The notes beneath the pieces were generated by a model. That model saw only the letters and a program-made list of their open reading frames with translations. It searched no databases and was not told where the DNA came from. The translations under genes and the position numbers were made by a program. A stretch of 64,000 bases of DNA from Chiloscyllium plagiosum. Lineage: Eukaryota. Shown one piece after another: positions 3,355-59,431 of this stretch (its first letter is position 1; the number at the start of each line of letters is the position of its first letter). The stretch spans positions 4,468,590-4,532,589 of the forward strand of contig NC_057752.1 of assembly GCF_004010195.1 (NCBI RefSeq), written 5' to 3'.

Positions 3355-3680
3355 TTTAAAAATTGATTTATTGGATGTAAGCATTGCTGACTGGTTCAGC
3401 ATTTATTGCCCATCTTTAATTGTCCAGGGGCAATTAAAAGTCAACCTCTGGGTCTAGAGTCACATGGAGGAGAAAGTGAGGCTGCAGATACTGGAGATCA
3501 CAGTTGAGCATGGGGTGCTGGAAAAGCGCAGCAGCTAAGGCAGTATCCAAGGAGCAGGGGAATCAACGTTTCGGGCAAGAGCCCTTCATCAGAAGGACTA
3601 GAGTCACATGTAGGCCAGACCAGGTAAGGTAGCAGATTTATTTCCGAAATAAAAAAGGGTATTAAGGAACCAGATGGCAT
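3355..3680 (-). mobile_element. SINE interrupted by a PLE mini-element; same family at 1-215 and 56500-56940
   Basis: Shared GGAAATCTGCC.TCCTTACCTGGTCTGGCCTACATGTGACTC-like body and GATGGGCAATAAATGCTG tail between copies. Confidence 0.65.
3467..3597 (-). mobile_element. PLE mini-element family A (single arm) with hammerhead core
   Basis: GGAGAAAGTGAGG-type end. Minus-strand CTGATGAAGGGCTCTTGCCCGAAACGTT. Flanking repeat ctagagtcacatg at 3454-3466 and 3598-3610. Confidence 0.8.
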
Positions 3681-4284
3681 GGTACATATGCAGCTTTGTC
3701 TCATTGTCTGCTGATTCTTCACCCTCAGCTATTTTTCTTGGCAACTTTTAAACAGTGGTAGTTTGACACTCCCTTCCACTTTCAGGTGAGGAAGCAAGTC
3801 CCAGGGCCACATCAACCTGAAAGGGGATTTAAACCCATGCTATTAGGGATATTCTGAACCACATCCAACTAGCTGTCCAACTAACTGAGCTAACTTGCTC
3901 CCACATCATTGGTTACATACACCAGTCAGTCAAAAAAAAAATGACTGAAACTGGCAGTCGAAACAAAGCTGAAGGTTTACAAATGACACCAAGATACAAA
4001 AACAGAAGAACTTTTATTGGCATGATCTATAAATCTATGACAAGCTGGAAAAAGACATTTGATACTGAACTTGGGCACAATGAGAGCACTGTGTGTTTCG
4101 GAATAGTCTCAACTCAAAAAACAGAAACAGAAAACATGGAAGGTAATTTCTGGAAAATTACAGTCAGAACTTGTTGATATCATTGTCCAGGTTTAGTAAA
4201 AACTATTGACCTTTAAAATACTACGAAGTGATATTTTAGCCTAGAGAATTACATATATAAATAGGCTGAATACATTTACTATAC

Positions 4285-4401
4285 CTCTTCATTGAGACTC
4301 AAAGCATTCATGAGTGATTCCACATCGTCAAACTCGGCATAACCAAATCCCTTCAATCTGTCCTGATTGGTGGACTCTCTCGGCAAACGCACTGCACTGA
4401 T
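4285..4401 (-). CDS. EIF4B: eIF4B exon 4 (ISAVRLPRESTNQDRLKGFGYAEFDDVESLMNALSLNEE; RRM RNP1)
   Basis: cccaaag|ATC...GAG|gtatag, 117 nt, with the RNP1 motif KGFGYAEF. Confidence 0.98.
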
Positions 4402-4573
4402 CTTTGGGAAGCCAAAAATAAAAAGCAAAAAGTGATATGTCTCACGCATGACAAGTTACAGTTTACCCTGGACAAAATTTCTTTCAACAAATACCAAGTT
4501 TATTTCTTCCTCCCTTTTCCCTTGCTGCAATGGATTTGACAGGGTAAATGGAATACTCTGCTCATTTACTTAC

Positions 4574-4779
4574 ATTCATTCCATGGAAGAACTTTCTGAT
4601 GGAGTCCTCAGACACATCATAAGGCAAATTGCCCAGAAAAGCGGTGTAGGGAGGCTGCTTTGGAATACGGTTCATATCAACATCTGGTGCTCGAGCAGCA
4701 CGAGGTGCTGTTGGTAGCAATGCCCGGTTAATAGCAGGCTTATAAATATCCTCTTCAATTCCAGGCCAGGCAGTGGAAA
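4574..4779 (-). CDS. EIF4B: eIF4B exon 3 (VSTAWPG...LPTAPRAAR...PPYTAFLGNLPYDVSEDSIRKFFHGMN; RRM RNP2)
   Basis: ttttgatag|TT...AAT|gtaagt, 206 nt. LPTAPRAAR and PPYTAFLGNLPYDV are diagnostic of eIF4B. Confidence 0.98.
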
Positions 4780-6985: not shown

Positions 6986-7065
6986 TTGTTACATGCATTT
7001 TTCCACTCAACTGCTGAATGTCACATATTATAATAGTTAGAAATTAAATTTGGTGATCCTCTTAC

Positions 7066-7844: not shown

Positions 7845-7847
<3 letters not shown>

Positions 7848-14910: not shown

Positions 14911-15236
14911 CACAGAATCCCGAAAGTGTGGAACCAGGCCCTTCAGCCCAACAAGTCCACACTGACTCTCCGAAGAATAGTCCACCCAGACCCAATCCCC
15001 TACTGCTCTACGTTTACCCCAGACTAATACACTTAACCAACGTATCCCTGAACACGATGGGCAATTTACCTAACCTGCACACCTTTGGATGGTGAGAGGA
15101 AACCGGAGCACCTGGAGGAAACCCACGCAGACACAGGGAGGACGCATAAACTCCACACATACAGTTGCCCGAGGCAGAAATCGAACCCAGGTCCCTGGTG
15201 CTGAGAGGCAACAGTGCTAACCACTGAGCCACCCCG
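14911..15236 (-). mobile_element. HE1-type V-SINE
   Basis: tRNA-like head GGTGGCTCAGTGGTTAGCACTG...GGTTCGATT, V-domain TGCGTGGGTTTCCTCC, and LINE-derived tail GAAGGGCCTG.TTCCACAC. Confidence 0.9.
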
Positions 15237-16470
15237 GTCTCACAAACTTGACTGAGGGTTTTTGAAGTAACAAAGAGGATTGATGAGAGCAGAGCAGTGG
15301 ATATGATCTATATGGACTTCAATGTGACAAGGTTCCTCATGGTAGGCTGGTTAGCAAGGTTATATATACACAAAATACACAGTGAACTCGCTCAAAGGTA
15401 GAAGACCTATGGTGGTGGTGGAGGCCTGCTTTTCAGACTGGAGGCCTGTGACCAGTGGTGTGCAACAAAGATCAATGCGGGGTACACTGCTTTTTGTCAT
15501 TTATATAAACGACTTGGATATGAACATAGGAGCTATAGTTAGTAAGTTTGCAGATGACATTAAAATTGGAGGCGTAGTGGACAGTGAATAAGATTACCCT
15601 TACAGCACCATGGGATCTTGATCAGATGGGTCAATGGACTGAGGAGTGGTAGAAGAAGTATAATTTAGATAAATGTGACATGCTGCATTTTGAAAAGGCA
15701 AAGTAGGGCAGGACTTATACACTTAATGGTAAGGTCCTGGGAAGTGTTGCTAAACAAAGAGAACTTTGGAGTGCAGTTCATAGTTCCTTGAAAGCAGAGT
15801 TGCAGGCAGATAGGATAGCGAAGGCAGAATTTGGTGCCTTTATTGGTCAGTGCACTGAGTACAGGAGTTGGGAGGTCATGTTGTGGCTTTACAGGATATT
15901 GGTGAGGCCACTTTGGAGTATTGCGTGCAATTGTGGTCTCCCTCCTATAAGAAAGATGTTGTGAAACTTGAAAGGATTCAGAAAAGATTTACGAGGATGT
16001 TGCCAGAGTTAGAGGGTTTGAGCCATAGGGAGAGGTTGAATAGGAGGGTGAGACTATTTTCCCTGGCGTGTTGGAGGCTGGGGGGGGGGGGGGGGGGGGG
16101 GGTTTATAGAGGTTTATAAAATCATGAGAGACAGAGTAAACGGACAAGATATTTTCCCCGGGGTAAAATAGCACAAAACTAGAGGGCATAGGTTGAAGGT
16201 GAGGTGGAAAGATTTAAAAGAGATGCAAGGGCAACTTTTTCCATGCAGAGGGTGGTGAGTGTATGGATTGAGCTGCCAGAGTAAGTGGTGAAGGCTGGTA
16301 CAGCTACAACATTTGAAAGGCATCTGGGAATGGGTACGTGAATCAGAAGGCTTGCGAGGAATTTGGGACAAATGCTGGCAAACTGGACTAGATTTACACA
16401 GGATGTTTGGTCAGATTGGACAAGTTGGACCGAAGGGTCTATTTACATGCTGTATATCTCTCTCACTCTA
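15237..16470 (+). mobile_element. CR1/HER1 LINE, decayed RT through 3' UTR
   Basis: Peptide remnants TLLFVIYINDLD, SKFADD, LEYCVQLWSP and KRFTRMLP, with frameshifts and stops. Confidence 0.92.
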
Positions 16471-18279
16471 AGTGTGAAACCTGACATTACACCTTCAATG
16501 ATGTTGCTGAGGGGCAGCACGTAGCTTTTGAAATAGGTGGTGGCCATGGACATAAGCTTAGGAGACGCCAAAGCTAACAGCGAGGTAGCAGGAAACAAAA
16601 GCAACACAGAAGCTTCTCTGGCTACAACTGAATGGCTAAGAAGAACAATGGCAACAAGAGTAGTGCATTCAATTCCATTAGTTCACACTGCCAGATAGAC
16701 AATGGTTAGTTTGAATCAGAACCCCATCTACCCTCCTTGTTTCTGTGATTCTTAACACCTTACCTAACAAAAATATATCAATTGTAGCATTGCTGTTTTC
16801 CAATTTAGATTTTCACTACCTTTTTTGTGAAGAATGCTTTCAGACTTCACTCCTGGAGAACCTAGTCCTTGTTTTGGACTCTCCCACAAGAGACAATAGT
16901 TTCTTTCTATCCACCTGATAAAGTCACTAATTATAACACATTATTTAGATCATCTTTTAATCTTCTGTAAATCTTGGCCTTATAATTTAAATAATTTTAG
17001 TCCCAACACCATTCAGGTTTGAATACATACCCATTTTCTCTACTCCCTTGTCTAATTCCTCTCCAAGCCTATCAAATACAGCAAAGATGTTTGTGAAAGA
17101 TGAGGAAGAACAGTCAGCAAAGTCACAGGATGCCTTTGGTTAAAGGCATCCTGTGATCTGACATGAGGCGTGATAATGGCAGATTTGAAGGAAATGGCAG
17201 ATTTGAAGGAAAAAGGAGTAGTGCACAAACAGAGAAAAGTTGGGGTGTAAATAGTTTAGGAGCAATAGGGTCCAGAGAGTAAGAGCTGGATCTTTAACCC
17301 TCCTCTACCATTTAATTAGATGATAGCAGATTTGTATACCCAACTCCCAGCCTTTGGTGACTGCGTAAAGTTTGCATGTTCTCCCCGTGTCTGTGTTGGT
17401 TTCCCCCTACAATCCAAAGACGTGCGGGTTAGGTAGATTGGCCAAGCCTGTAGTTTTCAGGGCAGGGTAGCTAGGTGGATTAGCCATGGTAAATGTGGGG
17501 TTACAAGATATGGTGGTCTTTGAATGGTTAGTGCAGTCTCGATGGGCCGAATGGCCTCCTTCCACACTGTAGGGGTTCTATGAATATTTAAAAATAAATT
17601 AATTCGAATTTTGAAAGCACCACATATCCCATCTTTCAAAGTTGCTCCGGGAAAAGAATTCCAGTTGTGGACGAGAGAAAAATCTGATTCCCCAAATGGC
17701 CTAGTTCTAATTTTAAGATGACCATATCCCTTCATCCTCGATCCCCAGAAGGAATCATTTCTCTGTACCTATTTTACTGAATCCTTTTAACACCTTAAAT
17801 ATCTTAAACTACCCCTCAAGGAATTACAAGTCACCTTACTCTCCTGATCTAACCCTTTAAACTTGCTTCAATTCTTTGCCACTTAAATTTAGGAGTGAAA
17901 ATGGGGGTGGCAGAGCATGCCAGGAGAATGACAGCTAAAGGGAGAGAGCACAAGGATTTTTCTACTGGAAATGGGATAACATAGCTGGAGAGGAGACATA
18001 TTTGAGCAGATCAGTAGTTGCGGAAGCATCCTGGCAAACAGGAGACCAAATTAGTCTTGATTTGATTGGAGGTAATGGGAACAGACTCCGTACGTAAGAT
18101 GGTGGCTCCGAATCTGGGCAGGAAAGCTGATCGGGAAGTCAGTCGGAACCGACAGGTTTGCAAACCAAACAGTGTGATTCAAGTTTCGGCCTCCACAGAA
18201 TTTAGAATGTGCAGATACCATTTTCGCGAAATGGGTGATTACAAATGATGCCGCAAGGACCCGCAGAAGTTCCAACACG

Positions 18280-18800: not shown

Positions 18801-19000
18801 GTCATTTTTTTTATTGTTTTTTTTGAAAACATGCTGCAAAATGACCGTTTAATATAAGAACACTTTAGAATCTGAAAAGAATAGAAGCACACTGAGTTGT
18901 TTGTGGATAAACAAAAATCTCGTCAGCATTTCCAGGTTTTTAAAATAATCTGGCTTTTCAGCACCAACAGAAAGTTAATTTTTGTTCACATTTCAGTTAG

Positions 19001-19217
19001 GAGGAGAAAGTGAGGTCTGCAGATGCTGGAGATCAGAGCTGAAAATGTGTTGCTGGAAAAGCGCAGCAGGTCAGGCAGCATTCAAGGAAAAGGAGGATCG
19101 ACATTTCGGGCATAAGCCCTTCTTCAGGAATCAGAAGGGCTTATGCCAGAAACGTCGATTCTCCTGTTCCTTGGATGCTGCCTGACCTGCTGCGCTGTTC
19201 CAGCAACACATTTTCAG
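19001..19217. mobile_element. PLE mini-element family A, fold-back (two inverted arms)
   Basis: Arms 19001-19130 and 19131-19217 are inverted copies. Perfect 14-bp TSD cacatttcagttag at 18987-19000 and 19218-19231. Confidence 0.88.
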
Positions 19218-19822
19218 CACATTTCAGTTAGTCAGTTTACATATGAGAAATAGTCTGTCAATCTATAGATCTACGACTTAATACCAAGTTTTCCTTTGCC
19301 ACAAATCCCAACTACTTAGGTTTCCTCCCATTGGTAATGCCACCCATTAACTGGTACAACCATCTCTTGTGATTCTTCCACTGTTCATTGTGAAACGTAA
19401 CCAACATCCCTGAGAAGTTGAAATTTCCTTCAGTTAAAAGCACTGGCAAGACTGAAACCTTGGCCTTTGTGTCCCTTCATCCTTTGAGGAGATGGGCAGG
19501 ATGTTAAAAGTCTAAGAGTTATAATTAATAAGGTTTTAACTTTAAAATTAGAGTCAAAGAGAGAAGTCAGGATACACTTCTTCACTCAAAGAAGTGTGGA
19601 ACTTTCTCCCAAAAAGAATAATGGATACAACCTCAAATCTTTTGAGTCCACGATCGATAGATCTTTGCTGTATTCCAAAAGGAAAAACCAGTAAAGCTTG
19701 CAAACATCTTGCTGTTTTTATTCCTGGTTTCTTCTATCGGCAGTAATCTGATGTGTGTAGGATGCTAACACACCAGGCATTTTCCTTTTTCTTCCTTAAT
19801 TACCACAGGACACCCCCAATAT

Positions 19823-20649: not shown

Positions 20650-20965
20650 GGGCAGCACAGGGGTTAGCACTGCTGCCTCACAGTGCCAGAGACCCGGGTT
20701 CAATTCCCGCCTCAGGCGACTGTGTGTGGAGTTTACACATTCTCCCTGTGCCTGTGTGGGTTTCCTCCGGGTACTCCGGTTTCCTCCCATAATCCAAAAT
20801 GTGCAGGTTAGGTGAATTGGCCATGCTAAATTGCCCGTAGTGTTAGGTGAAGGGGTAAATGTAGGGGAATGGGTCTGGGTGGGTTACGCTTCAGCGGGTC
20901 GGTGTGGACTTGTTGGGCCGAAGGGCCTGTTTCCACACTGTAAGTAATCTAATCTAATCTAATCT
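20650..20965 (+). mobile_element. HE1-type V-SINE, near full length with (AATCT)n tail
   Basis: tRNA head, V-domain, HER1-like tail and terminal taatctaatctaatct. Confidence 0.93.
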
Positions 20966-22437
20966 TTCCTTCAGTGTCGAGTTGCTACTGTTGGATCTAC
21001 TGCATCTACCATCCCTATCTAGTCTGGGCCGACATGTGACTCTAGTTCCACAGCAATGAAAGATTTGTAGAAGAGGATGAGTTGATCTGTTCATTGATGG
21101 TGAGCCAGTGTAGACCAGCAAGGACATTCAGATGTGGAGTTTGGGTGATTCGGAATTTATTGTAGTTAAGTGGCGATTAGAGGATGTGAAATAATTAAGT
21201 CTATTGTTGGAGGCATGAATATGGGAGTGGAGTAGGGTACATAGGTTAGCAATGTTGTGGGCTTGGAAATAAATGATCTTGATAATGCATAAGATATGGG
21301 GTTTAAGCTCAGCTGTGGATCAAACAGAAAGCCAAGGATTTGACATTACACAGAAGTTACAGCATTAAACAGCCATTTGGCTCAACTGGTTACTATTGCT
21401 TTTTATGTTCCACAAAAGCCTCATGCAGTCAACATATCCTTCTGTTGGTTTCTTTCTCATGTATTTCTCCTTAAGTATGTCAATGCTATTCACCCCTTGT
21501 GATAGGAAGCTCCACATTCTAACTACTCTCTGGATAAAGCAGTTCCTCCTGAATTCCCTGTTGGATTTATTGGTGACTATTTTATTTATGGCCATTATTT
21601 TGGACTCCTTAATAAATGAAAATATCTTCTCTGTCTATTCTATCAAGTCCTTCTAAAAACTCCCAGAGCAAGGAACCCCAAGCCTTTGTTTTTGATATTC
21701 AGTTGGACAAAATTATGGCTCATCTGTAATCTAGGTAAGAACTGACAAAAATACGTGTATCTAATTGATACTTTTCAGATTTAACTGAATTTATTCAGAT
21801 TTTTCTAGTCATTTTCCAGTTGGTTTTGTCTTTCTAACACTCAGTCTGTGGCTCACAAACAGTCCGCTACTATTTAGTGTGTTAAGCACACTCTTAGAAT
21901 CCATCAAATTGCATAACCAAACTGCAAAGTGAATGAATCACCTCACTTGCAGAAACATTAACAATAAAATTTGTAATAAACAAGCATGATAATATGTCTT
22001 AATACAGTAGACTAATGCCAGTCATGCTATTGTTATGGCTCCAGTTGGAGAGATCAAAGGGAACATTCTATGCAACTGTACTGGTTACACCCATTCTCAT
22101 TGTACTAAGAGGCTACTATTCACCTGAAAAATATGGTTTATGAAAAGTGAGACAGCATATATCACAATGTCATTATATTCTGCTGTAGCTGACTCCTTAA
22201 TTGCAGTGAATGTCAGCTCTTAGGAAGTGGAATGTGTTTGTCGTGTAACCTGAAGTAATAATTACTGAAAGCTCCCAACTAATGTTCTTGACATGGCCCT
22301 TGTATCAACTTGAATGAAGAGATTGCAGACTGGAATTTTCTCTTTAAATTAGCGTCCTCGTGAGGTGCCTTTGTAACATGCCAAACTATAAACCTGTGGT
22401 CAGAGCAGGCTTTCACTCAATAACTTAGCTCTCCTAG

Positions 22438-22942
22438 TCATGGGGTCATAGAGATGTACAGCACGGAAACAGACCCTTCGGTCCAACCCGTCCATGCCGA
22501 CCAGATATCCCAACCCAATCTAGTCCCACCTGCCAGCACCCGGCCCATATCTCTCTCAACCCTTCCTATTCATGTACCCATCCAGATGCCTTTTAAATGT
22601 TGTAATTGTACCAGCCTCCACCATTTCCTCTGGCAGCTCATTCCATACATGTACCACCCTGTGTGTGAAAATGTTGCCCCTTAGGTCTTTCTATATCTTT
22701 CCCCTCTCATCCTAAACCTATGCCCTCTCGTTCTGGACTCCCCGACCCCAGGGAAAAGCCCTTGTCTATTTATCCTATCCATGCCCCTCATGATTTTGTA
22801 AACCTCTATAAGGTCACCCCTCAGCCTCCGACACTCCAGGGAAAACAGCCTCAGCCTGTTCAGCCTCTCCCTATAGCTCAGATCCTCCAACCCTGGCAAC
22901 ATCCTTGTAAATCTTTTCTGAACCCTTTCAAGTTTTACAACA
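22438..22942 (-). mobile_element. CR1/HER1 LINE 3' fragment
   Basis: ORF KLERVQKRFTRMLPGLEDLSYRERL...LRGDLIEVYKIM. Confidence 0.93.
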
Positions 22943-24199
22943 TATAGCTGAGCATCTGACTGCATTTGGAACATCTAAAGAGGATTTTCATCATTTAGTA
23001 TCCATAAACAATCTTTTAGTCGAAGATATTTATATTGGCTCCATCCCAAACAGATCAGAAAAATAGAAACAGGAGTAGACCTGGTGTTCAGCCATTTTGC
23101 TTATCCATCAAACTTATCCAGATCTCTTCATAATGTAATATCATGCATTGCCTCATTGTCAGAGGTGCCATTCTAGGGGGAAAAAAGTTAAACCAAGATC
23201 CTAGTCTACCCCAATACCGCAGGTGGTTTTTCTAACACATTTTAAAGGGGAGCCAAGCAGTTTTCCCAGGTATTCTGGTCATAAATCAAGGAAAACAGGT
23301 GAACTGGTCATTCAACTATTTATAGAATCATGCTGTGCACAAAATGGCTGTTATGTTCATCACCCATAACAATATTTATCCTATAGTCCAACCATGGGGG
23401 AGGGGAGTGTGTTCTTCTAAGTAAACCTTTGGTGTCGTCCCCTTCTTCAAATCCCTTATTTGCCACTGATGTCTCTCAAATGCTTTAGCCTTGAAATGAC
23501 TTGATGAGATTAGTGTACAAACATACAATGGGTCAAATTGTGCAAAAGCGAGGCATCTTGCTTGCACGGTCTGCTATTTAGACACTTTCCTGCACATTTC
23601 AGCTCAATTACAATTACGATTTCCAGCATAATATGTTGGAAGTATGACCTAAACATAACATGGTGAGGGCATCGGGAACCTTCTTGAAAAATGGGATTAG
23701 CTGTCTGAACCAATGACATTTAAGCATTCAACACATAACACAGGAATAATGGGAAAGGACGATACATTGGGTTGAAATCAGGTTCAGAAGGCGAAACAAA
23801 CAAAATGGGAACTCAGTAGAACACTGCCACTCTGTGTTAAGTTGACGTTATTGCACTTCTCTTCTTTGAGAAATTCCCTGGTTGGTTGGTACTCTGTAAC
23901 CATAAAGTGTACATAAAATCTTTTTGTTAGGCGTTTCCGTGTTGCTGAGGATGCTTCAGGCCAGTCCACATCCAACAGCCTACTTTGAAAGCTCTGCTCA
24001 CATTTCGATAGCTGTGACAAATTGCACCTCAGCTACTGAGACATTCCACAACTAAACACACATCATGAGAAATAACCAATGCGCCCTATCTCCCAATGTC
24101 AATGGGTTCTTGAAAGAATTCCAGAATCTGAATCCAGATCAAACCTTCATCAAAATATTTCCTCTTGGGCCATATCCTACATGTGTACCAAGTTTCCTT

Positions 24200-24553
24200 T
24201 GAGATTGGAGCGTCGGAAGCTGAGGGGTGACCTTAGAGGTTTATAAAATCATGAGGGGCATAAACTAGAGGGCATAGGTTTAGGGTGAGAGGGGAAAGAT
24301 TTAAAAGGGACCTGAGGGTCAACTTTTTTCACATCGAGGGTTGTGCGTGAATGGAAGGAGCTGCCAGAGGAAGTGGTGGAGGCTGGTACAATGACAATAT
24401 TTAAAAGGCATCTGAATGGGTATATGAATAGGAAGGGTTTAGAGGGATATAGGCCAAGTCCTGGCAAATGGGTCTACATTAGGTTAGGGTATCTGGTCAG
24501 CATGGACAAATTGGACCGAAGGGTCTGTTTTTGTGCTGTACATCTCTATGACT
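24200..24553 (+). mobile_element. CR1/HER1 LINE 3' fragment
   Basis: WKELPEEVVEAGT...FKRHLNGYMN followed by the HER1-type 3' tail. Confidence 0.88.
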
Positions 24554-24979
24554 CAAAGATCTGGATATTCATTACTCCATGAACTTGCTGGTTGATTTGC
24601 ACATTAACAGCATTACCCATCCCTTTGACTGTCCAACTGTGATTCTGTCTGTCTGTCTGTCTCTCTCTGGCCTCCAGATCTCCACCTATTGTTTACTCCT
24701 CCCCCATCTTCCCAATCTTTTCCCAGCTACAGTTAGTTCTGAAGAAATGTTACTAGACCTGAAATATTAACTCTGCTTTCTCTCCACAGATGCTGCCAGA
24801 CCTGCTGAGCTTTTCCAGCAATTTGTTTATTACAAGTAACCATTTGGTACAAACAATACATTTCCTGAGGCACTTAAGTGTGTGGGCAAATATTAAGTGA
24901 TCAGTTTAGAACAAAGGAACATATTTTCAGTAGACTGTCATGATTCAAATGATTTGAGGTAAGGTAGAGTGTAAGATCT

Positions 24980-37024: not shown

Positions 37025-37359
37025 TAGAATCATAAAATCCTTAACAGTGTGCAAACAGGCCATTTGGCCCAACAAGTCCAATCTGACCCTCCAAAGAGTA
37101 ACCCACCCAGACCCTATTATTCTACATTTACCTCAGACTAATGCACCTAACTTACACATCCCTGAACACAATGGGCAATTTAGTACGGCTAATTGCCCTA
37201 ACCTGCACATCTTTGGATTGTAGGAGGAAACCAGAGCACCCAGAGGAAAGTCACGCAGACACGGGGAGAATGTGCAAACTCCAGTCAGACAGTCACCCGA
37301 GGCTGGAATCAAACCCAGATCCTTGGTGCTGTGAGGCAGCAGTGCTAACCACTGAGCCA
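37025..37359 (-). mobile_element. HE1-type V-SINE inserted into a CR1 3' fragment (36968-37610, +)
   Basis: SINE head, V-domain and tail are present. CR1 sequence stops at about 37022 and resumes at about 37360. Confidence 0.85.
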
Positions 37360-39917: not shown

Positions 39918-40105
39918 GGTAGACAAGCAGGAGGCTGGAGGAACACAGCAAGCCAGGCAACACCAGGAGGTGGAGAAGACAAGATTTCGGGTATATCTGA
40001 AATGTTGACTTCTCCACCTCCTGATGCTACCTGGATTGCTGTGTTCCTCCAGCCTCCTGCTTGTCTACTTTGGAGTCCAGCATCTGCAGCTTTTCTGTCT
40101 TTAAC
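39918..40105. mobile_element. PLE-derived fold-back mini-element (family D)
   Basis: Inverted arms GTAGACAAGCAGGAGGCTGGAGGAACACAGC / GCTGTGTTCCTCCAGCCTCCTGCTTGTCTAC. CAGCATCTGCAG tail as in family A. Flanking aa[g/a]gtgtgctt repeat. Confidence 0.75.
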
Positions 40106-40159: not shown

Positions 40160-42055
40160 CTTTTCGATGGTATTAGGCAAGAACTTTTAAAAGCCGATTG
40201 GAGGCAGATGTTCGCAGGTAAAGGGACGGCTGGAAAATGGGAAGCCTTCAGTAATGAGATAATAAGAATCCAGAGAAAGTATATTCCTGTCAGGGTGAAA
40301 GGGAAGGCTGGTAGGTATAGAGAATGCTGGATGACGAAAGAAATTGAGGGTTTGGTTAAGGAAAAGAAGGAAGCATATGTCAGGTATAGACAGGATAGAT
40401 CGAGTGAATCCTTAGAGTATAAAGAAAGTAGGAGTATACTTAAGAGAGAAATCAGGAGGGAAAAACAGGGACACGAGATAGCTTTGGCAAATAGAATTAA
40501 GGAGAATCCAAAGGGCTTTTACAAATATATTAAGGACAAAAGGGTAACTAGGGACGGAATACGGCCCCTCAAAGATCAGCAAGGTGGCCTTTGTGTGGAA
40601 CCACAGAAAATGGGGGAGTTACTAAAAGAATATTTTCATCAGTATTTACTGTGGAAAAGGATATGGAAGATATAGACTGTAGTGAAATAGATGGTGACAT
40701 CTTGCAAAATGTCCAGATTACAGAGGATGAAGTGCTGGATGTCTTGAAACGGTTAAAAGTGGATAAATCCCCAGGACCTGATCAGGTGTACCCGAGAACT
40801 CTGTGGGAAGCTAGAGAAGTGATTGCTGGGCCTCTTGCTGAGATATTTGTATCATCGATAGTCACAGGTGAGGTGCCGGAAGACTGGAGGTTGGCAAACG
40901 TNNNNNNNNNNNNNNNNNNNNNNNNNNNNNNNNNNNNNNNNNNNNNNNNNNNNNNNNNNNNNNNNNNNNNNNNNNNNNNNNNNNNNNNNNNNNNNNNNNN
41001 NNNNNNNNNNNNNNNNNNNNNNNNNNNNNNNNNNNNNNNNNNNNNNNNNNNNNNNNNNNNNNNNNNNNNNNNNNNNNNNNNNNNNNNNNNNNNNNNNNNN
41101 NNNNNNNNNNNNNNNNNNNNNNNNNNNNNNNNNNNNNNNNNNNNNNNNNNNNNNNNNNNNNNNNNNNNNNNNNNNNNNNNNNNNNNNNNNNNNNNNNNNN
41201 NNNNNNNNNNNNNNNNNNNNNNNNNNNNNNNNNNNNNNNNNNNNNNNNNNNNNNNNNNNNNNNNNNNNNNNNNNNNNNNNNNNNNNNNNNNNNNNNNNNN
41301 NNNNNNNNNNNNNNNNNNNNNNNNNNNNNNNNNNNNNNNNNNNNNNNNNNNNNNNNNNNNNNNNNNNNNNNNNNNNNNNNNNNNNNNNNNNNNNNNNNNN
41401 NNNNNNNNNNNNNNNNNNNNNNNNNNNNNNNNNNNNNNNNNNNNNNNNNNNNNNNNNNNNNNNNNNNNNNNNNNNNNNNNNNNNNNNNNNNNNNNNNNNN
41501 NNNNNNNNNNNNNNNNNNNNNNNNNNNNNNNNNNNNNNNNNNNNNNNNNNNNNNNNNNNNNNNNNNNNNNNNNNNNNNNNNNNNNNNNNNNNNNNNNNNN
41601 NNNNNNNNNNNNNNNNNNNNNNNNNNNNNNNNNNNNNNNNNNNNNNNNNNNNNNNNNNNNNNNNNNNNNNNNNNNNNNATAGAGGTTTACAAAATTATGA
41701 GGGGCATGGATAGGATAAATAGACAAAGTCTTTTCCCTGGGATCGGGGAGTTCAGAACTAGAGGGCATAAGTTTAGGGTGAGAGGGAAAAGATATAAAAG
41801 AGACCTAAAGGGCAACTTTTTCACGCAGAGGGTGGTATGTGTATGGAATAAGTTGCCAGAGGATGTGGTGGAGGCTGGTGCAATTGCAACATTTAAGAGG
41901 CATTTGGATGGGTATATGAATAGGAAGGGTTTGGAGGGATATGGGCTGGGTGCTGGCAGGTGGGACTAGATTGGGTTGGGATATCTGGTCTGCATGGACG
42001 GGTTGGACCGAAGGGTCTGTTTCCATGCTGTACATCTCTATGACTCTGTGACTCT
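40160..42055 (+). mobile_element. Young CR1/HER1 LINE spanning an assembly gap
   Basis: ORF2 peptides IKENPKGFYKYI, DKSPGPD and PEDWRLAN before the gap; C-terminus and 3' UTR after it. Confidence 0.92.
40902..41678. other. Assembly gap (777 N)
   Basis: Run of N. Confidence 0.99.
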
Positions 42056-43584: not shown

Positions 43585-44655
43585 TACAGAAGCAGAAGTT
43601 TCTGGAAAAGCTCAGCAGGCCTGATAGCATCTGTGAAGAGAAATCAGAGTTAATGTCTCGGGTCCGGTGACCCTTCCTTAGGACTGATGGGAACTCGGAA
43701 AATGTTGGTTTATATGCAGAAGATAGGGGGTAAGGAGTAATTGATATGTAGGGATGGAGCCCAAAGAGAGAGAAGGACAGTTGGACAGACAAAGCAGTGG
43801 ATAAAGATCTGGCTGAGAGGACGAATAGCTGTTAATGGAGACAGTTAGTGGTTAACAATAGGCCATGTGTAATGGCAGACTATGTGATAACAAGGCTGGT
43901 GTGTGGGGAGAGGGCTAGGACATAGGGGAGTTCAGGCCCTAAAATTATTGAACTCAGTATTGAGTCCCGAGGATTACGGGGTCCCCAAGCGGACAATGAG
44001 GTGTTATTCTTCCAGTTTACACTGAGCTTCACTGGAACACTGCAGGAAGCCTGAGACAGAGATGTTGACCAGGGAACAGAGTGGTGCGTTAAAGTGACAG
44101 GCAACTGGAGGCTCAGGGTCTATTTTGCGGACACAATGTAGATGTTCTGCAAAGCCATCACTCAATCTATGCTTCATTTCCCCAACGTAGAGAAGACCAC
44201 ATTGTGAGCAGCGAATGCAGTAGATGAGATTGAGGAAAGTGCAGGTAAAGTGCTGCTTTACCTAGAAGGTAGGTTTCAGCCCTTGGATACTGAGGAGGGA
44301 GGAGGTAAATGGGCCGGTGTTACACCTTCGGCGATTGCAGGGGATGGTGTTGTGGGACCGTAGGGTGGGGTTTGGGAGTGGAGTAAGAGTGGACTGGGGC
44401 CTCCCTGAGGGAGCAGTCCCTGTGGAATGGGGACAAAGGAGGGGAGAGGACTCTATATCTGGTGATGGCACCTTGCTGGGGGTGGTGGAAATGGCAGCTG
44501 ATGATCTTCTGGAGGTTTCGTTCTGAAGAAGGGTCACTCAACCCGAAACATTAACTCTGATTTCTCTCCCCAGATGCTGCCCAGACTTGCTGAGCTTTTC
44601 CAGCAATTTCTATTTTTGTCTCTGATTTACAGCATCTGCATTTCTTTTGGTTTTT
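43585..44655 (-). mobile_element. Penelope-like element (family C): decayed GIY-YIG with an inverted pseudo-LTR
   Basis: Minus strand PCNRRRCNT...FTCTFLNLIYCIRCSQCGLLYVGEMKHRL...EH. The terminus at about 43590-43685 recurs inverted at 44522-44655 and carries CTGAAGAAGGGTCACTCAACCCGAAAC. Confidence 0.87.
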
Positions 44656-45344: not shown

Positions 45345-45465
45345 AAGATTTGGAGATGTCGGTGTTGGACTGGGGTGGACAAAGTTAAAGAGCACTGCGA
45401 AAGCTAGTGTGCTTCCAATTAAACGTGTTGGACTATAACCTGGTGTTGTGTGACTTTTAACTTTA
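45345..45465. mobile_element. PLE mini-element family B (short fold-back)
   Basis: GATTTGGAGATG.CGGTGTTGGACTGGGG end joined to GAAAGCTAGTGTGCTTCC...GTGTGACTTTTAAC. Confidence 0.8.
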
Positions 45466-45702: not shown

Positions 45703-46314
45703 ATCATAGAGTCATAGAGAAGTACAGCACGGAAACAGACCCTTCAGTCCAACTTGTCCATGCTGACCAGATATCCCAACCCAATCTAGTTCCATTTGCC
45801 AGCACTTGGCCCATATCCTTCTAAACCCTTCCTGTTCACATGCCATATACGCACCACCCTCTGTGTGAAAAGGTTGCCCCTTAGGTCTCTTTTATATCTT
45901 TCCCCTCTCACCCTAAACCTATGCCCTCCAGTCTGGACTCCCACACACCAGGGAAAAGACCTTGTCTTTTACTCTAACCATGCCTGTCATGATTTTGTAA
46001 ACCTCTATAAGGTCACCCCTCAGCCTCCAACGCTCCAGGGAAAGCAGTCCTAGCCTATTCAGCCTCTCCCTATAGCTCAAATTCTCCAACCCTGGCAACA
46101 TCCTTGTAAATCTTTTCTGAACCCTTTCAAGTTTCACAACATCCTTCCGAGATAGGAGGGAGCCCAGAATTGCACACAATATTCCAAAAATGACCTAACC
46201 AATGTCCTGTACAGCCACAACGTGACCTCCCAACTCCTGTACTCAATGTTCTGACCAATAAAGGAAAGCATACTAATCACCTTCTTCACTATCCTATCTA
46301 CCTGCGACTCCACT
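45703..46314 (-). mobile_element. CR1/HER1 LINE 3' fragment
   Basis: LYRTLVRSFLEYCVQFW and KLERVQKRFTRMLPGL. Confidence 0.92.
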
Positions 46315-50078: not shown

Positions 50079-50259
50079 TCCAACAGGTTTAATTGGAAGC
50101 ACACTAGCTTTCGGAGCGCTCCTTCATCAAGTGATCACCCGATGAAAGGGCATCGCTCCGAAAGCTAGTGTGCTTCCAATTAAACCTGTTGGACTATAAC
50201 CTGGTGTTGTGTGATTTTGAACTTTGTACACCCCAGTCCAACACCGGCATCTCCAAATC
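50079..50259. mobile_element. PLE mini-element family B, fold-back with two opposed, decayed hammerhead cores
   Basis: Inverted arms meet at about 50133. Flanks ctgattactctc and ctgatgattctc are a degenerate TSD. Confidence 0.82.
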
Positions 50260-51609: not shown

Positions 51610-51823
51610 CAGTAGTCTGCCTTCTGCCAAAGGCATTAACTGGTGCTAGGGTAAATTTCATCTGTTAGCTGGGCTAAGGGAGGGCTATCTGGTACTTCGA
51701 TCACATCAGGGGCATCACGACTGAACCTAGTTCTGCCATCAGTCAGCTGGAGGAGGTGAGCTGGAACAAAAAACGTATAGAAGGCTGTATCGTGAAGCAG
51801 CCAACAATGCCTTTCAGGCTTTG

Positions 51824-52025
51824 ATTTGGAGATGCCGGTGTTGGACTGGGGTGTACAAAGTTAAAAATCGTACAACACCAGGTTATAGTCCAACAGGTTT
51901 AATTGGAAGTACACTAGCTTTCGGAGTAACTCTTCTTCATCAGGTGAAGGAGCGTCGCTCCGAAAGCTAGTGTGCTTCCAATTAAGCCTGTTGGACTATA
52001 ACCTGGTGTTGTGTGATTTTTAACT
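51824..52025. mobile_element. PLE mini-element family B, fold-back
   Basis: Perfect 12-bp TSD tttcaggctttg at 51812-51823 and 52026-52037. The arms meet within the hammerhead region at about 51945. Confidence 0.88.
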
Positions 52026-52858
52026 TTTCAGGCTTTGTGCCTGGTGTATATTTGCAACTTGTGATCTGAGATAGCACAGGTCACAGTTCATTGTACACCC
52101 TATTTGCAAAGAGATACTGGAAGAGTGAGTCAACAGAGTTGACTCCACAAGCTGACACCTTCATTCCCCGCTTGCCTGGATGGGTGTGGCTCAAACAACA
52201 CTCACAAAGCTTGATACCATCCAGGACAAAGCAGCCCCAGTTTTTTGGCACCCAATCCATCATCACTGACACACAGTGGCAGGAGTAAATACCAAGATGT
52301 ATTGCAGTAACTCGCTGAGGCACCTTTGGCAGCACCTTCCAAATCTGTGACCTCTACCACCTAGAGGGACAAGGGCAGCAGGTACATAGGAACACCACCC
52401 CCTACAAATTCCCCTCTAAACCAAACACCATCCTGACTTGGAAATACATTAGCCATTCCTTCCATTAGCCAGGTTCAAAATCCTGGAATTCCCTTCCTAA
52501 CAGCACTGTGGTTTTACCCGCACCACATATGGACTGCAGTGGTTTATGAAGGCAGCTCACCACCATTTTCTTAAAGGCAGGTAGTGATGGGCAACAAATT
52601 CTGGCCCAGCCAGGGACACACATATCCAATGGAATAACATATAGAAATGATCTGGCTGAACCATCAGGAATAGAGTCAGTAAAGCATTAGACCCTTTCAA
52701 ACTGATCAGACTTAGCTACAGTATGGAGTGCTGAGATCTCAGTGGATTATGGTGGTGGAGATTACAGAGATAGGAAGGGGACAAAGCCATGAAGGGATTT
52801 GGAGGTGGAGAATTTAAAAACTTCGGTGTTACTGGACCAAGTGTCAATATATATTGGA

Positions 52859-53143
52859 GGGGCAGCATGGTGGCTCAGTGGTTAGCACTGCTGCCTTGGG
52901 ACCCAGGTTCGATTCCAGCCTCGGGTAACTGTCTGTGTGGACTTTGCACGTTCTCCTGTGTCTGTGTGGGTTTCCTCTGGGTGCTCCTGTTTCCTCCCAC
53001 AGTCTAAAGATATGCAGGTTAGGAAGATTGGCCATGCTAAATTGCCCGTAGTGTCCAGGGATGTGCAGTATAGGTGGATTAACCATGGGAAATGCAGAGT
53101 TACAGGGATGGTGTGGATCTGGTGGGATGCTCTTTTGAAAGTC
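52859..53143 (+). mobile_element. HE1-type V-SINE
   Basis: tRNA head and V-domain. Confidence 0.88.
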
Positions 53144-54321
53144 ACGGAAGGGTAGAGATAAGAGGCCATAAAATGGTGCAAAGACCAAGTGATGTGAGGC
53201 AACATCTTTAAGGTGATCTCACAGTGTCTGCCATACATTTGGTGCTTCACTCACGAACAAACTGCTGCACACCCTGCAGCATAACTAGGGCATTCAGTTT
53301 TGAGGATAAGTAGTAATTTAATGCGAGTAAAGTGACTAAGAATTGAAAAGTATTCATTTACAACCTGATAGCAATTAGATGGGGGATTATTGGATGTCAA
53401 TCAAATATGGTTTGAACCTGACAATCACATTCCTCAGGTGACATTCCGTGGTTTAAAAGATGTCTGAAGCTGATTGTTCCACAGGAATTTTGACCAACAG
53501 TTGTAATCAATCCTGTTTGTAACCAGATACTTATATAACTTAGAGAAAAAAAAGGTTGAAGAACATAGCATGACTCCTCTTGATGTTCCACATATTTCTC
53601 ATTCTTTTAAACTGAAGCCTCACTAGTTTAATAGTGCTATCACCTTGACTGCTGTGCAGAGATGAGGTCAAAGAACCTTTCTTTATCTATTTTGCTGTTA
53701 GCGCTGAAAGACCTGTAATATTTTCCGTCATTGGTAGCCCCAACCCCGCACCCCTGATGCTCTGAAGGAGGTGACTTCTGCTGGGTTCAGGTTCACAGAT
53801 ACTAAAAGCATCCTGATACCTAAATCACTTGCATGGTCATTCCTCATATCTGATCTCAGACAATGTTAACAGGCACCACAGACAAGCCCAATCTTCTCCT
53901 CACCCAGTAGCTACATGTATGCACTTTCCAGCAGAGCACAGTGAATTTGTTCGGAGAAAAACTAATTGATTTAAAATTTCTCATACCTTGTTTTCAAATC
54001 TTCCATGGCCCTTTCTTTCACTATTTATGCAACCTTTTGCAGTTCTACATTCTCTGTATTTCTCCAATTCTGACCTCGAAAGCATCCACAATTTTAATCG
54101 CTCCACCACTAGTGTCTGTGCTGCTGCCTTTAAACTCTGGAATACCCTCCCTAAACTTCTGCCTTTTATTTTCTCCTTTAAGTCCTTCCTTAAAACTTAT
54201 CTCAGTGACAATTCTTTTTGGTCATCTGTCCTAATATCTCCATATATATCAAACGTAATACTCCCATGAAGCAACTTGGGACTTTTATATAGTGTCCTTA
54301 ACTTATTAAAATGCTGGTTAT

Positions 54322-54908
54322 AGAATCATAGAGATATACAGCTTTGATCCAACTCATCCATGCTGAGCAGAGATCCCAAATAAATCGAGTTCCATTTGCC
54401 AGCACTTGGCCCATATCCCTCTAAACCCTTCCTATTCATATACCCATGCAGATGCCTTTTAAATGCTTTAATTGTACCAGCCTCCACCACATCCTCTGGG
54501 AGTTCATTCCATACATGCACTACCCTCTGCGTGAAAAAAATGCCCCTTAGGTCCCTTTTAAATCTTTCCCCTCTCATCTTAACCCTATGCCCTCCAGTTT
54601 TGCACTCCCACACCCGTGGGAAAAGACCTTGTCGATTCCTGCTGAAGGGCTTTTGCCTGAAACGTCGATTCTTCTGCTCCTCAGCTGCTACCCGAGCTGC
54701 TGTCCGTTTCCAGCACCACACTCTTGAGTCTGATCGCCAGCATCTGCAATCCTCACTTTCTCCACCTTGTCTATTTACCCTATCCATGCCCCTCATGATT
54801 TCATAAACCTCTATAAGGTCACCCCTCAGCCTTCGACGCTCCAGGGAAAACAGTTCCAGCCTATTCAGCCTCTCCCTATAGCTCAAACCCTGGCAACATC
54901 CTTGTAAA
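54322..54908 (-). mobile_element. CR1/HER1 3' fragment interrupted by a family A mini-element (about 54636-54763)
   Basis: CR1 peptide is broken by the insert. Repeat accttgtc[g/t]att at 54626-54637 and 54764-54775. Confidence 0.9.
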
Positions 54909-56000
54909 CTAGTTGTTAATTTTCTCCTCTCATGGGCAATGTATAGCTAATGAAGTGAACAGACCACTCTTTCTCTATCTTCTATGATTCTTTGGGGCAT
55001 TTTTTCTTATAGCTTTAAGTGTGAAAAGCTAATTTATATACAACACTTCCAGAAATTCTAGTGCTATTCACTTTAGTACCTTGGCCACAGTCTTTTAGAA
55101 GGATAGCATGGATGAGGGTATTCAGTTCTGTGTAAAGTTCTGATGAACTTTCACTGGCCCAAAAGGTTCATATTCAATCTCTCTCCACAGATCGTGCCTG
55201 ACCTGCTGAGTGTTTCTAGCATTTTCTTACTTCGAACATCTGGAGCATTTTGCTCTTGGTCAAAGTAGAATATTAATTGTGTGGTTCATTATTTCGCTTC
55301 CAGCATGCAGGTTTCCACTTCTAATGACCTGGTCTTTTTCTGAAAATAGTGTTTTTTGTGACCAGCATATAAATTGAAAACAATGGCGAAAGAGCCTGAT
55401 TTGTAACATGTTTGTGACGAAGGCCAGAATATTTCGTGATTCCATACATCTTATTGTGTTGTTTAATAATCGCAGTAGAATGCCCTGGTGAAAGGTTAGA
55501 GTGGTTGGAGAGTTTAAGAACACATATTCAAAAAAATCAAAGTTTCAGCATTTAAGATGATTCACCTGTTAATACATGTTGGACAATGCATTTGTAAACA
55601 TCATTGTTCGTAATGCTATTTTATGGAAGTGCTATTACAGGTATTTGTTTGCGGCCATATAATTTATGCTGGTACACTACTTCATTTGTAATTCCTTTGG
55701 GGCAGTAGGGTGGGGACCAGGGAAAGCACCCCACCGAGACCACAGTTCTCAATCGGACGAATTCAAACGCAAGAGCTTCCATTGCTTCAGCAACCAATAC
55801 CTTCATTCAGATGCCTCCAACTGTTTGATTGATGCCTCATTCATTTTCTTGTTCATCCCGGTGAACTTATGTGCCCATGATTTTGGGAGCCTTTGCCAAA
55901 CCTGAGATAACCAATGAGCATTGACCTACACCTTGGGAGTTGCCAAGCTATAGCTTGCATGTGGCTCTTTTACACAAAAGATAGGGCTGTCAAAACTAAA

Positions 56001-56217: not shown

Positions 56218-56544
56218 CTATGGGTGCAACTCATCCTCAATCTCAACCACTGCAAAATGCCCTCCTCACAATTTACATAGGTACTAAGCAGGAAAGGTAT
56301 ATTAACACATTCTATTCAGGGAAATAGTGAGAGCTGCAGTAAGTTTTTATTGCAGCTGTTGAAATGTATTCCTGTGACATGACCACTGCAGTCAGTTATG
56401 GTACAGCACCGCCAGTCTGAACAGCCACAATAATTTTGATAATTAATTCCTGTGGGAATCACGGTCGTGAGTGGTAGGAGACGATTAAATAACTATGGAA
56501 AGATGGTGGTTTATTGGTAATGTTACTGGACTACTATTCCAGAA

Positions 56545-56707
56545 GAGAGAAAGTGAGGGCTGCAGATGCTGGAGATCAGAGCTGAAAATGTGTTGCTGGA
56601 AAAGCGCATGAGCCCTTCCTGAAGAAGGGCTCATGCCCGAAACGTTGATTCTCCTGTTCCTTGGATGCTGCCTGACCTGCTGCGCTTTTCCAGCAACACA
56701 TTTTCAG
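56545..56707. mobile_element. PLE mini-element family A inserted in a SINE
   Basis: TSD cta[c/g]tattccagaa at 56531-56544 and 56708-56721. Core CTGAAGAAGGGCTCATGCCCGAAACGTT. Confidence 0.87.
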
Positions 56708-57633
56708 CTAGTATTCCAGAAACTGAGACTCGTGTTTTAGGGACATGGGTTTGAATTCCACCATAGCAGATAGAGAAATTTGAATTCAGGTAAAAATCTG
56801 CAATTAAGCACTGGACTAACGGAGACCGTCTAACCACTCTCGATTGTCATAAAAGCCGTATGGTTCACTAATCTTCTTTAGGGAAGGAAATCTGCCATCC
56901 TTACCTGTTCTGGCCTACAGCCCCACCCAATGTGGTTGAAGCCTGAAAGTACTGTACAGCCAATGAAGTACTTTTAAAATGTAGTCATTGTTGTATTGTA
57001 GAATACACAGCAGTCAATTTGCACACAGTACAATCCCACAAACAGCAATGGGATAATGGCCAGATAATCTCATCTTGTGATTTGTATGAGCAAGTAATAT
57101 TCGCAAGGACACCAGAAAGAACACCCTTGCTTTTCTTCCCAATTGTATCAGGAAATCTTTTACTTTCGTTTGAGAGGGGAGACAGAACCTTGGGTTTAAC
57201 ATCTTACACAAAGCAAAATGCAACATGCCCTGAATACTGCATTAGATTGTTAACCGAGAAGTTTGTACTCAGGACTCTGGAATGGGACTTGAACCATAAA
57301 ATCAGGGGGCCATTGCTGTTGGTGGGAACTCACTGTGAGCAACTTGGTTGCTGTATTTCCGAAATGACAACAGTGACTACATTTCAAATGCACTTCACTG
57401 ATTGTAGAACATTTTGAGGGAGTCTTGTGGTTGTGCCTCTCAGAGGAGAACTGCCCTCTCTCTGCCTTGGTGGCTTCATTTTAACCTGAACAAGTATTAA
57501 CCTCAGAACAACAGCATCTTTAAATAACCTATAATAACTGCACTTTCCTACACTGGCTGGCAACAGATAAAGCGGGAGGAAATTAAAAGACCTTTGAATT
57601 TTTCAAGTGAAATTAAAAGACCTTTGAATTTTC

Positions 57634-57941
57634 GCACGGTGGCTCAGTGGTTAGCACTGCTGCCTCACATCGCCAGAGACCCGGGTTCAATTCCAGCCTC
57701 GGGTGACTGACTGTGTGGAGTTTGCACATTCTCCCCGTGTCTGCGTGGGTTTCTTCTGGGTGCTCCGGTTTCCTCCCACAGTCCAAAGATGTGCAGGTCA
57801 GGTAAATTGGACATGCTAAATTCCCTGCAGTGTTAGGTGGATTAGTCAGGTGTAAATATGGAGGGGGGGTTCTCTTTGGAGGGTTGGTGTGGACTGGTTG
57901 GGTCGAAGGGCCTGTTTCCACACTGCAGGGAATCTAATCTA
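57634..57941 (+). mobile_element. HE1-type V-SINE
   Basis: Head GCACGGTGGCTCAGTGGTTAGCACTG, V-domain, and tail ...CCACACTGCAGGGAATCTAATCT. Confidence 0.92.
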
Positions 57942-58243
57942 AATTCGCTTTTACAATTACCATTCATCTGGTTAAAAAGAAGCAAACCTCGATCATCCCA
58001 TTCTAATCCCTTTGCAATCAAATCAATCTCAAATGTTGGGAAGCCTTGCTTTAGAGATTTAAGGTTTTCAAAATAAAACTGTCAGTTTTGATTCAACTTT
58101 ACACATCAAGGGAATGATCATTTACAGTCTTTAATCCAGCTCAGCCATTCAACGCAGATTGTCAGGAGTAAATGCTCCAGGTATACACTTACAATTTTAC
58201 AATGGTTGCATTGTCTTCACCAAGGGTACGGACATCAGCAATA

Positions 58244-58425
58244 GGTGAAAGTGAGGACTGCAGATGCTGGAGATCTGACAGCAGGTCAGGCAGCATCCCA
58301 GGAGCAGGAGAATCGACGTTTCGGGCATAAGCCCTTCATCAGGAATGGCTTATGCCTGAAACGTCGATTCTCCTGCTCCTGGGATGCTGCCTGACCAGCT
58401 GTGCTTTTCCAGAACCACACTCTCG
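58244..58425. mobile_element. PLE mini-element family A, fold-back, with an intact hammerhead core on the minus strand at 58315-58342
   Basis: CTGATGA-AGGGCTTATGCCC-GAAA-CGTC. Degenerate 16-bp TSD at 58228-58243 and 58426-58441. Confidence 0.85.
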
Positions 58426-59431
58426 ACGTACATTAACAATACCCTATTTTTCTTTGGGGCTTGGTGCTAAAGTCCACTTCCACTCAAGCAAAGCCATCCC
58501 TGCTTGGTGGAGCCTCCTTCTGCCTTCTGCAGCAGGGCATGGGAGGGGAAAATGGGTCAGTAACACAGGCATCTGAGAATTTGTGTCCTCCCATCCTGCC
58601 ATTTACGTGTAGTCAGACCTAGCTTGGTTGATGATAAGAAGGACGCTCCCTGTTAAATCCTTCCTGTCCATCTGATTGCCTCTCTATGTTGCCCTCAAGG
58701 TGGCTGCAGTGGAAGTGACCATTGCCCACTTTCGCTGGACTATGCCTTTGCAAAGAAGGTCTGGGAAGAAAGAGATGCGGGGGTTTTGTCAAGGTTCATC
58801 CTGAGCAACTCTGTAATGCATGGGCTGTTGTCAGTGACACACACTGAGACATGTAATTGGAGGGCCGTCCAGAGGGGCAGCAGGAGGGTGTACTGGGGGT
58901 TGTGGATTTGCACAAGGAGTGCAAATGCTAAAATAACCCCTCTGAGACCCTCTTGTTTGGGAATGGACAATGTCTTATCTGTAACGGTTCTCGTCATCCA
59001 TTAAGAGCAGGCTACACAAGCTCAACTGTGTGGAAAAGGGATACACTTGGATCTGTTTATAATTTCGCAAAACCTTTCTCAGCTTTATCAATCAGCATCT
59101 CTCCCTCTTCTGTCATGAGGATAGCTTGAGCAATTGTCACAGATACTTTCAGCTCTTTGTAAATCTAGTATCATGTAGAAACATTTATCCAATGCTCAGA
59201 ACAGGTGCTGAAAGAAACCTAACAGGACTGGAATCTGCACCTGTAGTTTCGGTGCCTTTTCTGTGATGCCAAAACAATGCAGTTGAATTGAGCTAACCTT
59301 GAAATGGGTGTGTCAGTGTTTAAGTTTAAGCTTCAAGCTCACTGAGCTCAGTTTTTGCAAACACAAAGTTTCCAGACTCCAATATTATCTCTAGTCAATC
59401 AATGAAATTGGTGGTGTAATGGACACTGATG

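Follow-up and report, generated by a model that had tools for sequence, protein, structure and literature searches.

Short hammerhead-bearing insertions in the genome of Chiloscyllium plagiosum are terminal stubs of a Penelope-like element, and their ends may record priming near the start of its RNA

A stretch of 64,000 nucleotides of Chiloscyllium plagiosum DNA (contig NC_057752.1, positions 4,468,590 to 4,532,589 of the forward strand; hereafter the window) contains seven short insertions, termed family A, which are built around a minimal hammerhead ribozyme and are each flanked by a target site duplication (TSD). Family A is the terminal approximately 130 nt of a Penelope-like element (PLE) encoding a reverse transcriptase (RT) and a GIY-YIG endonuclease (EN), that is, its pseudo-long terminal repeat (pLTR), consisting of the minimal hammerhead and a 35-nt tail. 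We are confident both of the PLE identity of these stubs and of their formation at insertion; they represent a known by-product of PLEs and not a new ribozyme parasite. The distribution of their ends probably arose because cDNA synthesis was primed inside a capped PLE RNA that had not been cleaved, close to its 5′ end, and then ran off that end.

A preliminary description of the window had suggested a PLE origin, and the genome bears this out, with family A sequence joining RT/GIY-YIG coding sequence. Several of the 30 loci from a first genome search run on upstream of the hammerhead core, and the 130-nt unit sits approximately 220 nt behind an open reading frame (ORF) composed of RT, a Zn-finger-like linker and GIY-YIG. 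The pLTR lies downstream of the ORF in loci L007, L047 and L110. In L007, GIY-YIG coding sequence is followed by a C-rich untranslated region (UTR) and then by the family A terminus, and a tail-less arm is present in inverted orientation. Longer copies carry RT motifs, a Cys-rich linker and GIY-YIG, the Pfam matches to RT and GIY-YIG on these copies being weak and mostly under the curated cut-off. A C-x4-C-x2-C motif, Zn-finger-like and placed between RT and EN, precedes the EN in L103, L106 and L108, and as read from the sequence this Cys-rich linker points to the Neptune type, the trait being also found in Nematis; such a linker has been described as a Neptune feature common to Nematis (PMC8557442). 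Searches of the genome with C-terminal (EN) and N-terminal peptides gave 74,632 and 13,572 first-look candidates, respectively, which are not copy numbers. The ORF is also reached from the other side. In a sister subfamily, L185 and 30 further loci pass from the tail into a common continuation with an ATG, the ORF start lying 37 nt past the tail end, so that the pLTR is upstream of the ORF start in L185 and L192-L220; L072, one copy of the window's type, shows the same downstream continuation. With links to the ORF on either side, family A can be assigned to a coding PLE as its pLTR, which places both 3′ end points inside the PLE RNA. The family may already carry a name in Dfam or Repbase.

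Abundance and ends were assessed in a blind sample of the genome (3.56 Gb), for which 120 stretches of 10 kb, together 1,167,584 non-N bases, were drawn from large contigs at round coordinates. These were searched with a profile built on natural copies, and a score filter was applied. The scan returned 150 insertions, one per 7.8 kb, showing that the window is typical, and extrapolation gives about 4.6 x 10^5 stubs genome-wide. Positions are numbered from the first C of the hammerhead core as 0, with the predicted cut between +27 and +28. Two 3′ end points were found about 35 nt apart, at approximately +84 to +95 and at +123 to +128, and none of 104 well-scoring tailed matches in the sample ran into the ORF-start continuation. 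Two arms were present in 47 of the 150 insertions, 43 of which paired a tailed with a tail-less arm, while two paired an intermediate with a tailed arm and two had no tail on either arm; the pattern of an optional one-sided tail of 30-40 bp with an inverted, truncated 5′ copy was thus seen in 43 of the 47 pairs. A TSD, mostly of 12-16 bp, was found in 41 of the 47 paired copies and by the automatic scan in only 20 of the 103 single-arm copies, and the single-arm class therefore includes fragments.

The 5′ ends could be mapped for 135 insertions, 15 single-arm copies having been dropped where an N run or the edge of a stretch hid the end. More than half (72) fell at −10 to 0, as against 10 at −45 to −11, 33 beyond −45 (11 of these beyond −300, inside the ORF), 13 at +1 to +25, five at +26 to +30 and two later. 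This corresponds to 6.5 ends per nt at −10 to 0, compared with 0.29 at −45 to −11 and 0.5 at +1 to +25. The breakpoints had been expected to cluster by the core; they are indeed uneven, with 72 of 135 in 11 nt, but they are not confined to it.

The most probable account of these ends is a scheme in which RNA polymerase II would start at the A at −4, within an initiator-like YYANWYY. Staggered nicks would prime two cDNAs, one per tail boundary, and a cDNA primed at the 5′ pLTR copy would reach the cap after approximately 90 or 130 nt. The cDNAs would then join the target or one another by microhomology, giving single or head-to-head stubs, and priming at the 3′ pLTR copy would give rise to the longer, ORF-containing, 5′-truncated copies. 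On this view the hammerhead was copied intact and thus did not cut these templates. Parts of such a scheme have precedents. A PLE protein has been found to cut both DNA strands and to extend them, using two start sites within the RNA, one at each boundary of the tail, and a template that is not cleaved (PMC11167929). In L1 and SVA, an untemplated G at the 5′ end shows that the cap has been copied (PMC4859970). The fuller statement, that the commonest PLE insertion here is a 'strong-stop' run-off from the two tail sites of the 5′ pLTR on a capped, uncleaved sense RNA starting 4 nt before the core, we regard as evenly balanced. In three loci (L222, L076 and L126), extra sequence copied from the nearby target or from the element's own first bases lies between TSD and element, which suggests repeated annealing at the 5′ junction.

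The base preceding position −4 was analysed through exact genome-wide counts. Where the templated C is absent, the A at −4 is preceded by G in 3,963 cases (G-ATTC) and by A in 1,611 (A-ATTC), sequences with a further G in front being excluded from both numbers, while in the control one base further up the corresponding numbers are 1,364 for G-CATTC and 2,665 for A-CATTC. The G/A ratio is thus 2.5 at −4 as against 0.5 one base up, with a background of 0.70 and a ratio of ratios of 4.8. The templated upstream bases, including the C, are intact in 19,392 exact copies, a number from which mutation could not have generated the G class. With the UTR continuing in only one of 30 G loci besides, the G was rejected as a mutation or as a variant of a subfamily. 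By rough automatic classes, these 30 loci comprised 18 with host flank before the element, nine with an inverted arm that does not template a G, two with an arm that does and the one with UTR, so that in 27 of 30 the G comes neither from UTR nor from an arm. Among the 5′ loose ends on long copies in run X15, whose data are perhaps not independent of those in the assembly, the A at −4 had the best support, and the three joints listed into this A carry extra letters ending in G. The A at −4 sits in a YYANWYY context, similar to the initiator consensus, and TCAGT, again with its A at −4, occurs in two related families (12 and 4 rows). A splice junction at −4 was rejected by eye, there being no AG upstream, and we do not claim a downstream promoter element at +28, as the ACGT there is displaced by 2 nt from the spacing in Drosophila (motif from PMC2377424).

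Several observations do not sit easily with this scheme. In several G loci the TSD includes the G as well, and in the blind sample only five single-arm ends fell exactly at −4, three of them with G. Ends at −5, counted as CATTC preceded by a base other than T (at least 4,029 exact matches), are approximately as common as the G/A ends at −4 and show no G excess, and the hot zone is approximately 10 nt wide; one capped start does not therefore explain the whole of it. The 5′ ends of copies running on into the ORF start are for the most part dispersed, with only about 4 of 30 at −8 to −3. In a single-cell polyA RNA run (X19), reads matched both strands and marked no discrete start; the copies captured there lie mostly within host transcripts, and the run is uninformative on starts. 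The downstream link to the ORF was seen in the sister subfamily and in one copy of the window's type (L072), and not in each subfamily of the window, and the pLTRs on the two sides of the ORF were read on separate copies and not on one unbroken element.

The main rival to run-off at a cap is ordinary 5′ truncation with a structural stop, in which cDNAs would begin at the 3′ pLTR and most would halt just past the hammerhead, owing to fold-back or to a block in the C-rich UTR. The G would then have been added by the RT or chosen by microhomology, and the elements would be PLE stubs on this account too, the two readings differing only in what produced the hot spot. Consistent with this, a predicted fold pairs the core with 20 nt lying upstream of it, many junctions show microhomology to the TSD or to the other arm, the zone is broad, and extreme 5′ truncation is the published norm for PLEs (PMC8557442). 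A stall would, however, be expected at the 3′ foot of the hairpin and not 5′ of the core. The density of ends falls more than 20-fold just upstream of −10. In addition, only a single position shows the excess of G, and the two related families also have an initiator-like TCA(G/T)T whose A is at −4, albeit in few rows. We consider a structural stop a possible, though on the whole rather unlikely, origin of the hot spot.

The preliminary description had instead invoked a distinct RNA, retrozyme- or short interspersed nuclear element (SINE)-like, which would be short and non-coding, carry the hammerhead and be mobilised in trans. For the seven elements of the window this model is largely refuted, and as a general explanation we judge it very unlikely. 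Family A is the pLTR of a coding element, and about a quarter of the copies (33 of 135) extend into the 3′ UTR or ORF. A weakly resolved tree built on 128 columns, with 57 short copies and 27 long ones, showed 22 label changes against 23.4 on shuffling, and values as low as that observed occurred in 149 of 500 shuffles; supported subfamilies above a few rows mix short and long copies, with one exception of four short rows. Short and long copies thus interleave, and the short ones form no lineage apart. Among the 47 paired copies almost every junction is unique, a single one having been found twice, and this indicates that the palindromes were built at insertion and not copied as units. Over 60 nt, the arms of one element are 92% identical as compared with 81% between elements (22 pairs), which fits an origin of both arms from the same source element; loop concordance between arms was 9 of 15, a noisy value since the regular expression matched both strands. 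Furthermore, the 5′ ends do not map to the cleavage site, and a stub ending at the tail would lack the downstream RNA that internal priming requires in an Anolis element (PMC11167929). All window copies are monomers or head-to-head, with head-to-tail tandems, as in retrozymes, in none of the seven. That they are independent insertions made by a PLE RT/GIY-YIG protein, as had also been proposed, is supported.

In favour of a separate RNA are the strong clustering of the ends and the presence, in the sister subfamily, of head-to-tail arrays with a hammerhead in each unit, which match the definition of non-LTR retrozymes (10.64898/2026.07.22.740005). A softer form of the same idea would have some stubs or tandem pLTR arrays transcribed from an internal promoter and re-copied. 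The arrays (L199, L204, L206, L208, L213, L217 and L220) consist of units of approximately 250-280 bp, each with a pLTR carrying the hammerhead, the tail and the ORF start, and belong to a young sister subfamily. Several share a unit junction near −33, which suggests copying from one tandem source, and they fit the retrozyme definition better than do the window elements. Finally, an origin of the head-to-head palindromes by self-priming on an antisense template (a proposal made in PMC3846280) or by later recombination would suit the frequency of palindromic junctions and the greater likeness of arms within one element than between elements, but is highly improbable, as the 5′ hot spot is found in single-arm copies as well, the extra G is located 5′ on the sense strand, and 43 of 47 pairs combine a tailed with a tail-less arm with the TSD outside both (41 of 47 with TSD), as two target-primed starts predict.

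The hammerhead itself conforms to the minimal type I that had been described, a descriptor matching five family A arms in the window. Altogether this descriptor gave seven matches in the window and 107 in window and sample together, with none in shuffled or reversed controls, while an Rfam scan returned no hammerhead family at E<=5, only sub-threshold hairpin-like microRNA models. The core is conserved across subfamilies, and the loop of stem II varies while the stem holds. Stem I had been called weak; this applies to the window copies, with three of four pairs, but a low-divergence subfamily and two related families have the full 4 bp. Across families, changes in stem I match on both sides (by comparison, which is not a formal covariation test), and stem I thus looks selected in master elements. 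The minimum free energy structure of the monomer does not adopt the hammerhead fold; low activity and a dependence on dimers or protein have been published for such motifs (PMC4209133). Cleavage by the hammerhead as the cause of the 5′ ends was rejected: 5 of 135 ends lie at +26 to +30, a slight bump on very few ends, and copies in which both arms begin at the cut site were found at 15 loci genome-wide compared with 42 at a control palindrome 3 nt away, counts on which possible under-assembly of perfect palindromes bears. As the hot spot lies 5′ of the core, the templates were not cut by the ribozyme.

All seven insertions in the window were confirmed at the starts first assigned to them, with sizes of 126-222 bp and a TSD of their own in every case. 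Five have two inverted arms, as had been noted, one arm being longer by the tail of approximately 35 nt. Element 1 (3467-3597, minus strand) is a single tailed pLTR arm with its core beginning at 3592 and a TSD at 3454-3466 and 3598-3610 (13/13 matching). Element 2 combines a tailed arm on the minus strand (19001-19131, core 19127) with a tail-less arm on the plus strand (19132-19217), and its TSD lies at 18987-19000 and 19218-19231 (14/14); the 5′ end of the tailed arm is at −4 and is preceded by a G, which could equally derive from the opposite arm. In element 3 (30744-30957), the tailed minus-strand arm runs from 30744 to about 30858 and the tail-less plus-strand arm from about 30862 to 30957 (core 30867), between TSD copies at 30730-30743 and 30958-30971 (14/14). 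Element 4 (33802-34023) has a tailed arm on the minus strand from 33802 to about 33922, in which an internal deletion has removed part of stem II, and a tail-less arm on the plus strand from about 33931 to 34023 (core 33936), with a TSD at 33789-33801 and 34024-34036 (12/13).

The single tailed arm of element 5 (54638-54763, or from 54636 if the TSD overlap is counted; plus strand, decayed core at 54639) is inserted in a long interspersed nuclear element (LINE)-like repeat, and the left copy of its TSD (54626-54637 and 54764-54775, 11/12) overlaps the first bases of the element as a microhomology. Element 6 (56545-56707) consists of a short tailed arm on the minus strand (56545-56608) and a tail-less arm on the plus strand (about 56614 to 56707, core 56619), flanked by a TSD at 56531-56544 and 56708-56721 (13/14). 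The inner junctions had been placed in or next to the core; this holds generally, but the tailed arm of element 6 stops approximately 62 nt downstream of it. Element 7 (58244-58425) has a tailed arm on the minus strand (58244-58347) with an intact core at 58342 and an internal deletion of 26 nt, a tail-less arm on the plus strand (about 58349 to 58425), and a TSD at 58228-58243 and 58426-58441 (13/16). In a free TSD scan, the score of the element at 58244 was equalled at 17 of 149 random positions, which is weak taken alone, and that of the element at 54636 at 3 of 149; despite this, both TSDs coincide exactly with the element boundaries. None of the seven enters coding sequence, as had been stated, although members of the family elsewhere in the genome do.

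Other PLE sequences are also present in the window. An insertion of a related family at 43599-44644 lies between inverted hammerhead pLTRs with the tail on one arm, and contains GIY-YIG coding sequence at 43941-44348 (minus strand) with 51% identity to the family A peptide. A second PLE family, with a different stem II, is represented by a GIY-YIG fragment at 61180-61650 (minus strand) and by ends at 45374-45464, 50135-50259, 51823-52028 and 60560-60630, which are palindromic or single stubs. Hammerhead pLTR stubs that are older or of other families occur at 24712-24827, 39921-40091, 55140-55245 and 36700-36735 (minus strand), that at 39921-40091 being two-armed with a one-sided tail. Copies of a LINE-like 3′ end, which we take to be CR1-like, were found at 16130-16475, 22436-22943, 24203-24561, 41679-42053, 45703-46142, 54304-54948 and 59436-59794, one of them hosting element 5, and a SINE-like repeat, presumably like shark HE1, at 15057-15233, 20744-20843, 37139-37359, 52955-53081 and 57638-57834. 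A run of 777 N occupies 40902-41678.

Much of this architecture is already known, as inverted pLTRs, the one-sided tail, the TSD and solo pLTRs have been described (PMC3846280, PMC8557442), and dispersed hammerheads have been interpreted as truncated PLEs (PMC4209133). In Drosophila, an internal promoter has been placed in the pLTR, with its start well upstream of an intron (PMC2377424). Pen2/Pen2a of Adineta vaga (PMC3846280; scheme in PMC8557442) likewise have head-to-head pLTRs, a tail of 30-40 bp on one arm and an outer TSD, and share with the general scheme for EN+ PLEs the microhomology at 5′ junctions, the hammerhead in the pLTR, partial tandems and solo pLTRs. In contrast to Pen2/Pen2a, the ORF-less stub is here the majority product (approximately one per 8 kb), the 5′ ends cluster at one point, and the TSD mode is 14-16 bp compared with 8-10 bp (PMC3846280). 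Poseidon of Anolis carolinensis (PAc; PMC11167929) resembles the present family in its two internal RT start sites bounding the tail, in the extension of both strands, and in a hammerhead that lies upstream of the start sites, is dispensable for insertion and gives no reads ending at the cleavage site. It differs in that its ORF starts in stem II and its tail lies inside the ORF, whereas the ATG here is 37 nt past the tail, and in that the family described here has the Zn-finger-like linker of the Neptune/Nematis type; the accessible part of the PAc work gives no run-off at a cap or start site (PMC11167929).

The published dispersed hammerheads (PMC4209133) share the type I core, a bulged base before stem II, a palindromic minimal stem III and a short stem I; they occur in the thousands, dispersed as single motifs or as pairs on opposite strands separated by 100-700 bp, and have been ascribed to truncated PLEs. 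In contrast to the present analysis, the accessible part of that survey includes no shark genome and no mapping of breakpoints. Non-LTR retrozymes (10.64898/2026.07.22.740005) are alike in having a type I hammerhead and in being pLTR-derived and non-coding, but are head-to-tail tandems with a ribozyme in each unit, whereas the window copies are single or head-to-head and form no lineage apart from the coding PLE; tandem pLTR-derived retrozymes, including those of one cartilaginous fish, are covered by that work. With L1 and SVA (PMC4859970) the stubs have in common an extra G at a fixed 5′ end and an inversion from two primers (twin priming) with microhomology. In L1 the G marks rare full-length copies (PMC4859970), while here it would mark the shortest and commonest ones, because priming is internal. 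In the literature, supplements apart, we found no report of a shark PLE hammerhead and no reading of such ends as a cap or start site.

The value of the stubs is that of a fossil record, whose end pattern tells how and from where PLE RNA is copied, and they bear on the inverted ends and tails of PLEs, on sense versus antisense templates and on the role of the hammerhead. If the RNA does start at −4, stem I would begin at its first base, and the initiator would coincide with stem I. In that case the stubs, hundreds of thousands in number, would preserve the position at which PLE transcription starts and show two-strand priming on sense RNA in vivo, and each stub would re-seed a promoter. The ribozyme, for its part, would remove the cap-bearing first 32 nt and not free the element from a longer transcript.

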